Below, in pieces: positions 22,432 through 30,973 of a stretch of 32,736 nucleotides of DNA. Every line of letters begins with the position of its first letter. Position 1 is the first letter of the stretch. The notes beneath the pieces were generated by a model. It ran no database searches. It saw only the letters and a program-made list of their open reading frames with translations, and was not told the origin of the DNA. The stretch is from Candidatus Thorarchaeota archaeon (GTDB taxonomy: Archaea > Asgardarchaeota > Thorarchaeia > Thorarchaeales > Thorarchaeaceae), in assembly GCA_016839445.1 (NCBI GenBank), contig JAEOUG010000102.1:1-32736 (forward strand), read 5' to 3'. A program made the translations under genes and the position numbers.

Positions 22432-23220
22432 TTGTACAGAGTATGCCTCACCAACGACGACGGACCTCTGAGTGACAACCTGCTTAGATTGGCAGATGCC
22501 CTCAAGGACAAGGTTGAGCTCTTTGTCGTCGTGCCAGACGGACAACGTAGTGCCTCAGGGAAAGCATTGACTCTCAAGAGACCTATCAGACTGACTGAGA
22601 AACACGAGAAGAGGGGTTACAGCTTCGTGAGTCATGATGGGGTGCCGGCGGATTCCGTCATCCTTGCTCAGTGGTTCTACAAGGATCTAGACCTAGTAGT
22701 GTCCGGCGTAAACACTGGGGCAAATGTAGGCTATCAGAGCATTCTCACTAGTGGTACTGTTGGGGCCGCATTGGAGGCCGCCCTGAGGGGCATCCCTGCT
22801 ATCGCAATCTCTCAGGAAGCTCGACCTGAGGAGTGGTTCAACTCCACCGGTGGCAAGCGTTGCTTCGAGATGGTGTGCCAGACATCAACCAAACTCATAA
22901 TGGACATACTTGAGAAAGGCATGCCGAAAGGTATTGACCTCCTGAACCTCAACTTCCCTCACGAGCCGACCGAAGACACCAAGATTGTGGTGACAAAGCC
23001 AACCAAGATTCGGATGCACAATGAAGTGGAGGAGCGGCTCGACCCGAACAAGATGCCATACTACTGGTACCTGGGTCTCGAGAGACCACCCATGGCAGGA
23101 ACAGATGCACACGAGGTCCTCGTGAATAACAACATATCACTTACTCCACTCGTGCTAGATTGGGTTAACGATGTCGAGATAGAGAATCTTCGCGATTACA
23201 TCTCTCCTAGAGACGCTTGA
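22432..23220 (+). CDS. surE: 5'/3'-nucleotidase SurE
   Basis: Motifs LTNDDG, P...RSASG, G.PADSV, VVSGVN.GANVG and SGTVGAA.EA. Start TTG 22432 after AAGGAG; the ORF-track extension overlaps the histone gene. Confidence 0.93.
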   Translation: MYRVCLTNDDGPLSDNLLRLADALKDKVELFVVVPDGQRSASGKALTLKRPIRLTEKHEKRGYSFVSHDGVPADSVILAQWFYKDLDLVVSGVNTGANVGYQSILTSGTVGAALEAALRGIPAIAISQEARPEEWFNSTGGKRCFEMVCQTSTKLIMDILEKGMPKGIDLLNLNFPHEPTEDTKIVVTKPTKIRMHNEVEERLDPNKMPYYWYLGLERPPMAGTDAHEVLVNNNISLTPLVLDWVNDVEIENLRDYISPRDA

Positions 23221-24208
23221 CTCGCTCGAGGGCGGCCCAAAGGGCGTCGGTGGCGGGCCTCTGAATTCTCGAGCCATTGTATGTTTCTCTGACGCTGGGA
23301 TCGCTTGTAGTTTCTCCGATGACAGCAGCTTCGATTCCTTCCTTCTCTATCGCCCTTATCACATCTTCAGAGTTGCTGCTCTTGCACGTCAGAATCATAC
23401 ATCCGCTGCTGATGAGTTCCATCGGGTCGATGGCGAGAGTTTCGCAGATGCGTGATGTGGACTCATCTGTCTTTATCGCTGCCACATCTATTCGGAAGCC
23501 AACTCCGCTGGCGTCGCAAATCTCGTGGAGACCATTTGAGACCCCTCCCTCTGTAGGGTCGTGCATCGCGGTGACATGTCCGGTTCGGAATGCAGCAAGA
23601 CCGTCCTTGACCACGCTAATCCTGTTTCGGAGAGAGATCGCCTGGTCAACAATACGCTGGCCAAGCAGGGCCGTCAGCTTCTCACGGCCCTCAGAGGCAA
23701 GAATAGCGGTTCCCTCAGGGGCTGCACACTTCGTCAGAACGATAGCATCGCCAGGCTTCGCTCCACTGGATGTGACGAACTGGCCATCTTCTGCGACTCC
23801 CAACATGAAGCCGGCGGCAATTGGCCTGTCAATTCCCGGGGTTATCTCTGAATGACCACCCACAACTGCAATATCGAGCGAACTGGCAGCCTTGTGAACC
23901 TGATCAACAATGTGCTCAATCTGCTCCTCTGTACAGCCAACGGGCAGCATGAGCGATGCCAGGAACCATCTTGGTGCCACGCCAAAAGTGGCAATGTCAT
24001 TGGCATTGACGTGCACAACTAGCCAACCCAGATCTTCGATAGAGCCTGTGATAGGATCAGTTGCAGCTATGATCACCTTTTGCCCGACCTTCAGTACAGA
24101 CGCGTCCTGCCCCAGGCCAGGGCCTAGGATGACATCCGGGTCGGAGTGTCCAAGATGCTTGAAGATGATGTTGCTAAGAATGTCCGGCGGAACCTTTCCT
24201 GGTTGCAT
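23207..24208 (-). CDS. AIR synthase-related (PurM/HypE/ThiL superfamily) protein
   Basis: Motifs GKVPP..L, GPGLGQDAS, TDPITG, VHVNANDIAT.G..P, VGGHSE, GAKPGD, MHDPTEGG and LISSG. Start ATG 24208 after AAGGAG. Confidence 0.88.
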   Translation of the reverse strand: MQPGKVPPDILSNIIFKHLGHSDPDVILGPGLGQDASVLKVGQKVIIAATDPITGSIEDLGWLVVHVNANDIATFGVAPRWFLASLMLPVGCTEEQIEHIVDQVHKAASSLDIAVVGGHSEITPGIDRPIAAGFMLGVAEDGQFVTSSGAKPGDAIVLTKCAAPEGTAILASEGREKLTALLGQRIVDQAISLRNRISVVKDGLAAFRTGHVTAMHDPTEGGVSNGLHEICDASGVGFRIDVAAIKTDESTSRICETLAIDPMELISSGCMILTCKSSNSEDVIRAIEKEGIEAAVIGETTSDPSVRETYNGSRIQRPATDALWAALERVKRL

Positions 24209-24386
24209 GAGTTGGACTCCTTCAGTAGGTGCGCACTCGCCCTGTGCCTTGTGCATGAAAAGCAGGTTCATTGAAACCCAGTTCAGGGCACTCCTTGCTC
24301 ACTATGACACGAGGCGACTCTCGGGCGATATGCGCAGCCCAACGAGAGAGTCCCCGCTAATAATCTAATCGAGATGGCAACTTCGT

Positions 24387-25865
24387 CTACGCAGGTAGGT
24401 ATGCTTCGACTTCTTTGAGGTCCTGCGTTCTTAGCCGGGACTTCGAACGGCTCTGGGAGAGTATTGCGCCTATGATGGAGCCCTCTGCCATCAGCTCTCG
24501 AGATAGATAGGCCCGGCCACCAGCTGCGCGGGCTATGAGATAGGCGCCGAAAGTCCGGCGGAACTCATCCACCGCCAAGATCGTCTCAATCGGGTCCTTG
24601 TATCCCTCCTTTCTGCCCCTGAGGAGGGCCGCCAACTCAAGCGCGTCGTGGTAGGGGCGCTTCAGGAAGCTGGACCATCTTCTTTGCTCCAAGTCGACAT
24701 TCACGCAAGCCAGCTGAACCTTCTGTTTCTTCAGCGTTCTTGCCGCCCTGACCAAGTCCTGTACAGGAGTGAATTGCGCATGGCCAGGACCAACAGACTG
24801 CGCAAGGGGGATGTTGGGAGAGAAGTCTGAGATAAGGATCACAAGAGCCTCGATATCCTCATTGCGCATCCGCTCTCTCCTGATGGTCTCCATAGCTTTC
24901 TTCAATGCATCTGCCAACGGTGTGAGCCCTGAGATCTTCAGACGACCGAGGGCGCGATACAGCTTGTTCCAATTAGTGGTTGGCGCCTGTACCTCCACAG
25001 CACCGCTGTCTTTGAACGCGATGATCCCGGTACGATCCTTGGAGCCCCTAGTCTCAGCCTCAAGACGCTCGATGAACTCCCTCACCTGCTCGATGCTACC
25101 CTTCATGGAAAGGCTCACGTCAATGACAAGCATGATAGTCAGGGGTGTTCGTCCAGTGAACACACTCTCACGGACATCTTCCTTCTTTATCGCAATCGGG
25201 AGCTCGCGTTCAATGCCAGACCTTGCGGCCGCTGCAATCACGGTCGATGGAATGTGGATGTTGGTAATCTCCCGGGAGGGAATTCGAGACCTCACAGGTC
25301 TTCCGTGCTTCATGGCATCAGAAGCCTTCAATGAGCCCGTTGCACGAGACCTCGTGCTCTTGTTGATCCATCCTCCAGATGACACTTTGGAACGAATCAT
25401 AGCCCGGCGCCTAAGCTTCTCAAGATCGAAGACCTCTTCGCCGGTGTCAATGTCAGGGGTCTTCAGGAAGAAGCCGTCGTCGAGGTCGTAGGGAGAGTCT
25501 CGAATCTCAGACTTCGATCCAGTGATGGCCGTCTTCTTCTGAGGTGCATATGGTCGTGTCGCCAAGCCCCACTCATCGCCAGGCTCCGGGTATCCCATTC
25601 CTGGCTCAACAGTGTCAATCCCTGCCGCAGGCCCACTCTTCCTTCTGGTCATCACTTCCAACCACTTCTTCGCCAGACGGTACATCAGAGGTGCGTAGAT
25701 TAGCACGTCTATGATTATGGCCGGCCATGGAGGGAACTCGAAGAGCTGTGCGCCAAATAGCCAGTTGACCGGACTCACGTAGAGCCACGGGAAGAAGGGT
25801 AGAATGACGAAGAGCATTACGGCGCAGATGGTCCCCTTGATGGGATCACCCTGGGGGTTTCTCAC
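24387..25865 (-). CDS. chlD: ChlD/BchD-type C-terminal module (VWA/integrin-I domain) preceded by two hydrophobic helices; probably also made as the -1 frameshift extension of the upstream ChlI-like ORF
   Basis: MIDAS motif DVSLS...GLTPL...ISD and the ChlD pre-VWA pattern GRPVRS...ST..AAA...I.KEDVRE. The GTG start overlaps the upstream TGA (GTGA) and has no SD directly upstream. Confidence 0.8.
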
Positions 25866-27058
25866 TTTTTGTGGAGCTTTTTTTTTCCTTCTTGCTCCCC
25901 ATATTGAGCGAAGCGGGACTGGCGACCAAAGGAGCCACCGCTCAGCCTTGTGCCCTTCTCACCATCTTCCTCTTCTGGAGGAACTTCAGTCGGTGACTTC
26001 CGCGTCTTGCTCCTCTGAGATATCTCAGTAGCCTTTGTAATCGCTCGGTCAATGTCATCTGGAGACGGGGGTTCGAGAAGTCCGCCCCTTCTGGTGCGGT
26101 GGCTGAGGGCTAGCTGAGAGGCAATCTTCATGTCTTCCAGACTGACCTCCATCCTCCCTTCGAAGGCAGCATTGGTTATAGAGGCCTTGCTAATCACGAT
26201 GTCTGGCCTGACTCCATCGACTTCGAGCGCGTCACAGGCCATGGCGATTGCGCGAAGGTGATAATCTTTCAGTACTACATCGCCCAGAATCTGCTTGGCT
26301 TTCTCAATGCGGCTTCTGAGCTCATCCTGTCGATCCGTCCATGCATCACGAAAGGCCATGGGGTCATCCTCGAAAGCCAAGTTCCTACGAACGAGTTCCA
26401 TCCGGTCATCAATGCTGTGCTGTGCCGTCACATTGACGTGGAGGGGGAAGCGATCGAGGAGCTGAGGTCTGAGTTCGCCCTCTTCAGGATTCATCGTCCC
26501 GATGAGCACGAAGTTGGATGGATGAGAGATCGATATGCCCTCTCGCTCGATCACATTGACCTTTGTTGCAGCAGCGTCAAGTAAATCGTCAACAAGATGA
26601 TCTGGCAGTAGATTGACTTCATCTACGTAGAGAACGTTCTGGTGTGCCTCGGCGAGGATTCCCGGTCGGAGAGCTTGGATTCCTTCCTTGAGAACCAGTT
26701 CAATGTCTAGGGAGCCAATGAGTCGATCTTCTGTGGTCGATAGAGGAAGGTTGACAACTCGCATCTTGCGGCTCTTGGTCCTAAGAGTCTCCTTGGACTC
26801 GACTCTCGAAGCACATTCCTCACAGAGGAACTCAGGAGTATCGGGATTGCAGCCGAAGCGGCATCCCTCAACGATACTTACCTCCGGGAGGAGGTCTGCA
26901 AGAGCACGGACAACTGTGGTCTTACCCGTACCCTTTGGACCCGAGATCAAAACGCCACCAATCTGAGGGTTGATGCCATTCAGAACCAAAGCGAGCTTGA
27001 GATTCTCAAGGCCCACTACTGCGGTAAAGGGCATTGTCGCTCGCTTGAGTTCGCTCAT
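25862..27058 (-). CDS. chlI: Magnesium/cobalt chelatase ATPase subunit I-like AAA+ protein (ChlI/BchI family)
   Basis: Motifs [23 protein letters not shown] (Walker A), [36 protein letters not shown] (Walker B), [18 protein letters not shown] and L.HR.RR, followed by an acidic/Pro linker. Confidence 0.93.
25877..25886 (-). other. Slippery A9G run (A_AAA_AAA / A_AAA_AAG), candidate -1 programmed frameshift site
   Basis: The minus strand reads GGA AAA AAA AAG CTC CAC AAA AAG TGA. The -1 frame reads AAA GCT CCA CAA AAA GTG AGA with no stop, straight into the VWA ORF. Confidence 0.7.
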
Positions 27059-30191: not shown

Positions 30192-30857
30192 TTATGATTC
30201 TGCTTCGCGTTCTCGCTCTTCTCGGGCTTCTCGCTCAAGATCTTCCAGGAGCTCGTCGATTCGCTTGTCTTCTGGAGTCCCTGTCTTCGAGGATGATGAG
30301 GCAGCCTCACCTTCAGCTTCCAGAGGTGGCAGTACTCCTTCTTTCTCGAGCAATACCTCGGCCTCCATTGCGTCGAGCTCCCTGTCGATCCGCTCCTCCA
30401 TATCGAGAGTTGTGTCTGCTCCAGTCAGATCTTCTGAGAGAAGCTCACCAGCTATGGAGATGTGTTCAAAGGACTCCGACAGCTTGTCGAGCTGCATCTG
30501 AATCTCTTCCGGCTTCAACATGGACCTAGCCTCGGTGAGAGCATCGTTCGCGATGCTGAATGCTCGAAGAACCTCGGCCTGAGTCTTTGCTTCCTCCAAG
30601 TTCAGTAGAGCGGTCTCAAGTGTGAGGAACTGCTGCTGGTAGCGATTCCTCCGATTCTCCAGGTCGACAACGATGCTGAGGTGGGAACGAGCGAGGGAAC
30701 GATTGCCTTTTGACATGGCTTCCTTGGCGCTTTGCTGCTCCTCAGTCATCCTAGTCTCAAGTCTTCTGACTCTAAGCGTCAGGGCATTCATTGTGCCTTT
30801 CATTTCCAGAATGCCGCGTTCTGCATCGACCTTCTTCTTGCCGCTAAGGAACCCCAT
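30192..30857 (-). CDS. ESCRT-III / Snf7-family protein (Vps20/32/60-like)
   Basis: Basic helical hairpin (LRVRRLE...AKEAMSKGNRSLARSHL...LETALLNLEEA), then V..AF..ANDAL, EEIQ.QLDKL.E, and an acidic tail (EERIDRELDAMEAE...LPPL...IDELLEDLE). Start ATG 30857 or GTG 30866. Confidence 0.85.
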   Translation of the reverse strand: MGFLSGKKKVDAERGILEMKGTMNALTLRVRRLETRMTEEQQSAKEAMSKGNRSLARSHLSIVVDLENRRNRYQQQFLTLETALLNLEEAKTQAEVLRAFSIANDALTEARSMLKPEEIQMQLDKLSESFEHISIAGELLSEDLTGADTTLDMEERIDRELDAMEAEVLLEKEGVLPPLEAEGEAASSSSKTGTPEDKRIDELLEDLEREAREEREREAES

Positions 30858-30973
30858 ATCTTCCACCTAGTAGGTCCTTGTTGTCCTATCTCGTCACCTG
30901 AGCCATTTAAACAATTGTAATCTGTAACGCACAATAGTTATATCACCATAGAATAGACAAATCTCGATTTGAT

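Follow-up and report, generated by a model that had tools for sequence, protein, structure and literature searches.

The tau and gamma products of dnaX come from a single gene. In E. coli the ribosome shifts by -1 on A_AAA_AAG, and in Thermus thermophilus an A-run causes transcriptional slippage. A related form of recoding has been described for chlD genes of the chelatase family (fs-chlD), in which an AAA+ ATPase and a VWA protein are encoded in two overlapping frames. Here we describe a locus of this kind in the Asgard archaea. It lies in a stretch of 32,736 nucleotides (the window) from Candidatus Thorarchaeota archaeon (contig JAEOUG010000102.1 of assembly GCA_016839445.1), where a ChlI-type AAA+ open reading frame (ORF1) is followed by a VWA open reading frame (ORF2), and the two meet at a run of nine A's (A9). 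Here, a chlD-like gene very probably carries a site of programmed recoding and gives two products. An earlier note on the same DNA had proposed one gene with two AAA+ chelatase-type products made by a -1 shift on poly-A, and this is favored by 28 of the 30 readable loci, in which both the run and its -1 register are kept.

Passages of Antonov et al. 2013 (PMC3711429) report 23 'magnesium chelatase' genes that carry a -1 frameshift, belonging to six genera that include Methanocaldococcus and Methanococcus. These genes are annotated as two, and fused homologues are found elsewhere. The same source gives the extent of poly-A frameshifting in E. coli reporters of other genes as 63% for A11, 40% for A9 and 10% for A7. 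The A_AAA_AAR site is described as being under purifying selection in passages of Atkins et al. 2016 (PMC5009743). Both sources, as far as these passages go, agree with the earlier note that poly-A frameshifting in chlD genes was already described in bacteria and archaea. Passages of Kuznetsov et al. 2022 (PMC9227772) place fs-chlD in genomes from which the large subunit or the CHL/B12 pathways are missing, where its function is called unclear, and describe stimulatory structures as usual. The relevant passages of a review of archaeal recoding (PMC8211752) mention the chelatase case as suggested only, and the literature passages on cellular recoding in archaea treat it solely as ribosomal. A search of the literature on chelatase frameshifting in Asgard archaea or Thorarchaeota, and on archaeal transmembrane ChlD/VWA AAA+ proteins, found no paper describing such a locus.

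The features of the locus are collected in Table 1. ORF1 ends in GAA GGA AAA AAA AAG CTC CAC AAA AAG TGA, which gives the C-terminus ...KKKLHKK in the zero frame, and the run is read in this frame as GGA AAA AAA AAG. The GTG codon of ORF2 (25865..25863) overlaps the TGA of ORF1 as GTGA. As the -1 frame is open from 25958, the A9 run is located inside the 97-nt overlap of the two frames, and an A-rich slippery site (A_AAA_AAR or poly-A) is present within the overlap, as in fs-chlD. A -1 slip at A9 joins 394, 4 and 492 residues into a protein of 890 amino acids. Recomputation on the minus strand reproduced both the 398-residue ORF with its reported 3' end and the 890-residue protein that the earlier note obtained by joining the VWA frame through the A9G run (25877-25886).

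Table 1. Coordinates of the features of the recoded locus in the window.
Feature	Position	Strand	Remarks
ORF1	25862..27058	(-)	zero-frame product, 398-aa ChlI-type AAA+ ATPase, predicted soluble
ORF2	24387..25865	(-)	-1 frame, 492 codons, C-terminal half of the putative 890-aa long product
A9 run, proposed slip site	25878..25886	(-)	followed by G at 25877
Heptamer A_AAA_AAG	25883..25877	(-)	in phase with ORF1
Two-frame overlap	25862..25958	(-)	97 nt; zero and -1 frames both open
-1-frame stop	25961..25959	(-)	border of overlap
Zero-frame stop TGA	25864..25862	(-)	border of overlap
Walker A GPKGTGKT	26918-26941	(-)	ORF1
Cys4 motif CRFGC-x8-CEEC	26813-26863	(-)	ORF1 aa 66-82, within AAA+ module
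Walker B VLYVDE	26618-26635	(-)	ORF1
Predicted transmembrane helix 1	25764..25832	(-)	ORF2 aa 12-34; Kyte-Doolittle 19-residue mean 2.18
Predicted transmembrane helix 2	25671..25721	(-)	ORF2 aa 49-65; Kyte-Doolittle 17-residue mean 1.69
MIDAS motif DVSLS	25107-25121	(-)	in ORF2 VWA domain
VWA domain	24687..25136	(-)	ORF2 aa 244-393; VWA_2 1.2e-14, VWA 1.1e-11

The A9 run exceeds chance expectation. It is the only homopolymer of at least 8 in the window, and A/T runs become rare with length across the 2.9-Mb assembly (with 50, 9, 1 and 2 runs at lengths 6, 7, 8 and 9, respectively). Apart from A9, the only A/T runs of at least 8 in the assembly are a T9 at C129:120-128, located between two genes and resembling an oligo-T terminator, and a T8 at C154:5667-5674, at or near the start of a gene.

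ORF2 was searched against 61 genomes, comprising its own and 60 relatives, and orthologues were found in 25 of the 27 same-genus and 33 of the 36 same-family genomes searched. The junction can be read in 30 distinct loci, from 9 genera and one unplaced genome. Locus L040 is the same stretch as L029 and is excluded from every count, and the junction is unreadable in L020, L022 and L028, where the upstream sequence is missing. An apparent break of ORF1 in L003 was rejected, being just 100 N in the record.

All 30 loci have an A-run of at least nine at the equivalent place (A9 in 24, A10 in three and A11 in three), and 28 of them keep ORF2 in the -1 register. The earlier note had suggested an alignment of orthologous loci as a check on its proposal, and both the poly-A and the register came through it. 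The run is also the longest invariant stretch of the 300-nt alignment, with 7 columns, compared to at most 2 elsewhere. A zero-frame stop follows 10-13 nt 3' of the run in 26 loci. The run starts in phase 0 in 26 loci, in phase 1 in one and in phase 2 in three. Our locus reads GGA AAA AAA AAG where most relatives have GGC AAA AAA AAA C, a shift of the run by one base that retains the nine A's. Among the Lys codons in ORF2 of these loci, 46% are AAA (394/858). In four loci (L026, L029, L038 and L041), a TAA in the -1 frame directly adjoins the run, which confines the slip to the run itself. The pattern of run and register is what selection on the run would be expected to produce, judging from the aligned sequences, and neither a coupled start nor an assembly error would be expected to give it.

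An error of assembly is not the cause of the split between the two frames. One might suspect a fused gene broken by an error in sequencing or assembly, or else a recent pseudogene, as homopolymers are error-prone, the assembly consists of 190 contigs and is 89.8% complete, and a close relative (L018) has A10 at this position. Such an explanation is barely credible, as the same split in the same register is seen in 28 of 30 genomes that were assembled separately and belong to 9 genera and one unplaced genome, and both halves are intact, with 54-76% identity among relatives. A9 is in addition found in contigs from the runs of two studies. These come from a check of the assembly against the Logan contigs of four runs. 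Two contigs, X1 record 2 (24899-26756) and X5 record 11 (25291-26046), carry A9 with no difference or gap, at a depth of about 4-5, and one of them may come from the source sample. None of the Logan contigs of X2 and X9 spans the run. The backing that these contigs give to A9 is weak, since they drop rare variants and minor variants could be hidden.

There is no conserved start codon for ORF2. The codon aligned to its GTG is ATA in 13 loci, GTA in 8, GTG in 7, ATT in one and GTC in one, and hence a start codon is present at this position only in our locus and six others. Outside these seven loci, and outside L007, L018 and L038, which have other early starts, the first ATG, GTG or TTG is found at codon 15-17, inside predicted helix 1. 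In most loci it is preceded by a conserved peptide, [VI]RNPxGDPIKGT. The GTG at 25865..25863 is therefore probably an internal Val codon and not a start, as read from this alignment. The earlier note had seen no Shine-Dalgarno sequence belonging to the GTG of the second ORF.

These observations bear on the most conventional explanation of the locus, namely two ordinary genes that are translationally coupled, with ORF2 started independently, either from the GTG within GTGA or from an ATG further downstream, and the A-run encoding nothing more than a Lys-rich tail. The overlap of GTG and TGA in our window and the GTG in six relatives are what such coupling would use, and the public annotation does keep the halves separate, with ORF2 as a 492-aa 'VWA domain-containing protein'. 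In 23 of the 30 loci, however, the codon is ATA, GTA, ATT or GTC, and the next start is inside helix 1, past the strongly conserved peptide. Coupling also leaves unexplained the invariant run of at least nine A's at synonymous sites, given the 46% usage of AAA, and the compensated one-base move of the run in our window. Moreover, in-frame fused homologues exist. Coupling is thus a very improbable account of this locus.

Proteins with an AAA+ module, a hydrophobic segment and a VWA domain in one frame are present in other families of the phylum (876 aa in G047, 889 aa in G043, 900 aa in G045 and 833 aa in G057), and a further fused protein, in G053 (842 aa), has no hydrophobic segments. Locus L018 and a JGI protein, P0006, show this order of AAA+, transmembrane and VWA parts in one frame as well. 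In a protein library of 1.84 billion sequences, the best 150 representatives were examined. Among these, 135 have at least 600 residues, 19 of the 135 have a strongly hydrophobic segment in the linker, and 17 of the 19 have an N-terminal AAA+ module. The homologues with a hydrophobic linker are concentrated among the closest matches of the 150. Only one of the 17 in-frame homologues with a membrane hairpin has KKK before the hairpin, so the protein does not require poly-Lys, or poly-A, at this place.

Two of the in-frame genes of the phylum, L033 (G047) and L037 (G057), carry cgA_AAA_AAA_G at the boundary of the AAA+ lid and the linker (aa 372-377), where the -1 frame ends after 10 and 3 codons, respectively. 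This could be a dnaX-like signal that cuts an in-frame gene to a ChlI-like product, in two genomes of one family.

Unlike the run itself, the signals around it are not conserved. The earlier note had pointed to a Shine-Dalgarno (SD)-like GGGGAG about 8 nt upstream and to an imperfect stem at 25827-25850. Both are present in the window, the first 8 nt 5' of the run and the second as a stem CCCC..GGUG....CAUC..GGGG about 20 nt 3' of it, but neither is maintained among the relatives. An SD-like word is found in 8 of the 30 loci, at variable positions. The 80 nt after the run fold with -15.3 kcal/mol in our locus, which is no better than shuffled sequences (z = 0.08), and the single-sequence folds of the same length in the relatives have z values from about -2.7 to +1.1 (most from -1.7 to +1.1, three from -2.2 to -2.7). 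RNAalifold on the 30 sequences gave -0.7 kcal/mol and 5 pairs, one of them with a compensatory change, and hence nothing conserved. A 4-bp hairpin, CUCC-GGAA-GGAG, is predicted right after the run in several same-genus loci and is absent in our window. With no conserved stimulators, ribosomal -1 frameshifting lacks here the elements that classically make it efficient.

The shifted frame opens with two predicted transmembrane helices. The earlier note had placed the break within an acidic, Pro-containing linker; its actual position is just before this putative hairpin. Over the 30 loci, the Kyte-Doolittle averages are 2.33 for helix 1 and 2.19 for helix 2. The net charge is +4.4 in the N-terminal flank, -0.2 in the loop (13-20 residues) and +2.9 in the C-terminal flank. 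This pattern of charge and hydropathy agrees with a helical hairpin whose two ends are both cytoplasmic. The slip would then add a conserved two-helix membrane hairpin to the AAA+ product, which is among the less ordinary features of the locus. Across the 30 loci, the center of helix 2 contains a conserved Asp (IIID), or an Asn (IIIN) in some genera, and this buried polar residue may be functional.

The AAA+ module of ORF1 is of the ChlI type. Its Pfam matches are Mg_chelatase, AAA_5 and AAA_lid_2, with weak matches to bpMoxR and AAA_3, and it matches the solved ChlI structure (PDB 6l8d) with an E value of 6.5e-97. The Cys4 motif of ORF1 is also present in distant homologues, and a zinc or redox site is possible there. 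ORF2 contains the VWA domain with its MIDAS motif and is only weakly related to the structure of BchD (2x31, E 7e-4). The two halves match consecutive portions of the profile TIGR02442 (Cob-chelat-sub), ORF1 at positions 2-343 with 459.5 bits and ORF2 at positions 401-619 with 100.5 bits, against a cut-off of 779.5. The scores for BchD-ChlD are 234.4 and 60.6 (cut-off 499.6), and ORF1 scores 386.7 bits against TIGR02030 (BchI-ChlI; cut-off 467). None of these three NCBIfam equivalog cut-offs is reached by ORF1 or ORF2. A second ChlI-type gene was not found in the genome, where the next best match has an E value of 5.9e-6 and 30% identity.

The chelatase function suggested by these matches is doubtful. 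CobN/ChlH (PF02514) was not found in the genome, which is 89.8% complete, or in any of the 41 genomes of the family, 20 of which are of high quality. ALAD, PBG deaminase and CbiX were likewise not found in the genome, while the controls gave matches in 5 to 11 of the 14 named genomes. The large substrate-binding subunit and the tetrapyrrole pathway of a class I Mg/Co chelatase were thus both missing from what was found in this genome. In a 2020 study by Antonov (Mol Biol Evol), fs-chlD products were reportedly taken as subunits of cobalt chelatase, in genomes where cobN is present and chlI absent. Here, chlI is absent save for ORF1, and cobN is absent too. As CobN/ChlH, ALAD, PBG deaminase and CbiX were not found, the client is likely not a tetrapyrrole, and the protein is probably not a tetrapyrrole chelatase. 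The earlier description of the products as chelatase subunits does not hold up well, with neither the large subunit nor the genes of the tetrapyrrole trunk found.

Several observations weigh against a programmed site with two products. The GTGA overlap in our locus and six others would permit ordinary translational coupling, and neither a stimulatory RNA structure nor an SD-like element was found to be conserved over the 30 loci. These loci are from related metagenome-assembled genomes and do not amount to 30 independent tests. We infer the long product and the slipped mRNA, and the membrane hairpin is a prediction from hydropathy and charge counts. In addition, two of the 30 loci are off the -1 register. 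In L018 (G001), from a close relative, the run is A10 and the frame is uninterrupted over 898 aa, of which 891 residues are translated. In L007 (G018), one G has been lost 5' of the run, and a +1 or -2 shift would be needed. A JGI protein of 880 aa (P0006) is also fused in frame. These three cases may reflect errors of assembly or genuine variants, or they may point to switching at the DNA level.

Switching of this kind would make the run a phase-variable tract, in which replication slippage converts cells between a split (A9) and a fused (A10) gene, with no slippage by RNA polymerase or the ribosome. Long homopolymers are mutable, and an in-frame A10 in L018, another register in L007 and the fused P0006 are what such a tract would leave behind. 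Free switching does not, however, predict that 28 of 30 consensus genomes share the -1 register. The two contigs that span the run show no indel there, though their depth is about 4-5 and contigs drop rare variants. The zero-frame stop within 10-13 nt past the run in 26 loci also argues against switching, and it suggests that the short product is the selected default. Overall, phase variation is a very unlikely explanation, if slightly less so than coupled genes. If the register variants are real, they would be tolerable under transcriptional slippage, which makes transcripts with one nucleotide more and one fewer.

Under programmed recoding, standard decoding would yield the soluble, 398-aa ChlI-type AAA+ ATPase, which ends four codons past the A-run. 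A fraction of the products would shift to the -1 frame at A9 and read 496 more codons. The resulting long form of 890 aa would have the same AAA+ module, followed by the two-helix membrane hairpin, a linker and the VWA/MIDAS domain. The shift could come about in two ways, by RNA polymerase adding one A in the run (transcriptional slippage) or by the ribosome slipping by -1 on A_AAA_AAG. The balance tips slightly toward transcriptional slippage, because the sole conserved element is the run, with a floor of nine and in three codon phases. A homopolymer of about nine or more whose length, and not codon phase, is conserved is compatible with this route and is no proof of it.

On the model of ChlI/ChlD and CobS/CobT, the short form would make up an ATPase ring. 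The long form would join this ring and present its membrane-tethered VWA domain to a client. A fuller version of this scheme can be offered tentatively, as a possibility that we hold at clearly less than even. In it, programmed transcriptional slippage by the archaeal RNA polymerase would set the ratio of the soluble and membrane-tethered forms of a non-chelatase AAA+ motor, the VWA arm of which would act on a membrane client in an organism that does not synthesize tetrapyrroles.

The neighboring genes provide no functional lead. An AIR-synthase-related gene (23207-24271, minus strand) is located 116 nt downstream of ORF2. It is HypE/ThiL/SelD-like and below all NCBIfam cut-offs. Of the 30 loci from the first search, our own included, 29 have it in this place, and so do L038, L039 and L041. 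It was not found beside the distant fused homologues, and was rejected as an informative operon partner. The AIR-synthase-related gene, SurE and threonine synthase are kept as neighbors within the family and not by the distant fused homologues. Further along the window is an ORF of the Snf7 (ESCRT-III) family (30192-30866, minus strand; PF03357, 1.5e-16), in keeping with an Asgard genome. The Asgard-like origin proposed from the letters of the window is borne out by the nearest named relative, a metagenome-assembled genome of Candidatus Thorarchaeota, and by the annotations of homologues, which name the same group.

An annotation as a single recoded gene that has two products would serve the locus better than 'ChlI' and a 'VWA domain-containing protein', and for this lineage 'Mg-chelatase' is probably a misleading label. 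The gain is incremental, as the mechanism is already known. Nonetheless, the locus extends the published recoding family to Asgard archaea and draws attention to a clade of ChlD-like motors with a predicted membrane anchor. With its run fixed at nine or more, a variable phase and no conserved stimulator, it also offers a clean comparative test of transcriptional and ribosomal slippage in archaea.

Among known systems, dnaX yields a long and a short AAA+ product of a single gene by way of an A-rich slip site, as the present locus would, and the two share the heptamer A_AAA_AAG. They differ in that the unshifted product is the short one here, and there are no conserved counterparts to the two stimulators of dnaX in E. 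coli, the SD-like element upstream and the hairpin downstream. MoxR-type pairs, such as NorQ/NorD (PMC9976466), likewise combine an AAA+ ATPase with a VWA partner that acts on a client, sometimes a membrane complex. In comparison, they belong to another AAA+ clade and, in the passages of that source, are separate genes with no recoding.

ChlI-ChlD and CobS-CobT (6l8d, 8osf, 1g8p and 2x31) are closer in architecture, with a ChlI-type AAA+ module and a VWA/MIDAS partner that has its own N-terminal copy of the AAA+ module. A ring of the small subunit that engages the VWA protein, as in passages of a preprint on CobS-CobT (10.64898/2026.10.09.757910), would be expected here as well. In contrast to the class I Mg/Co chelatases, no ChlH/CobN (0/41 family genomes) and no ALAD, PBG deaminase or CbiX (own genome) was found for the present protein, which misses the equivalog cut-offs and is predicted to be membrane-tethered.

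The closest system is fs-chlD. In both, a ChlI-type AAA+ ORF is followed by a VWA ORF in the -1 frame, and a poly-A or A_AAA_AAR site at the domain boundary is conserved among orthologues. In both, the halves are annotated as two genes, fused homologues exist elsewhere and there is no separate chlI. The absence of the large subunit and the pathways is shared with the 'stage 1' class in passages of PMC9227772. There are four differences. The host is a Thorarchaeota-like Asgard archaeon, whereas the archaeal examples in the passages cited are Methanocaldococcus and Methanococcus. The shifted frame opens with a predicted two-helix membrane hairpin, and the word 'transmembrane' is absent from PMC9227772. 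The run is never shorter than nine, and there is no conserved downstream structure, in contrast to the stimulatory structures given as usual in passages of that paper. The mechanism itself is not new, and we regard the locus as a lineage-specific, putatively membrane-anchored variant of the published recoding family.

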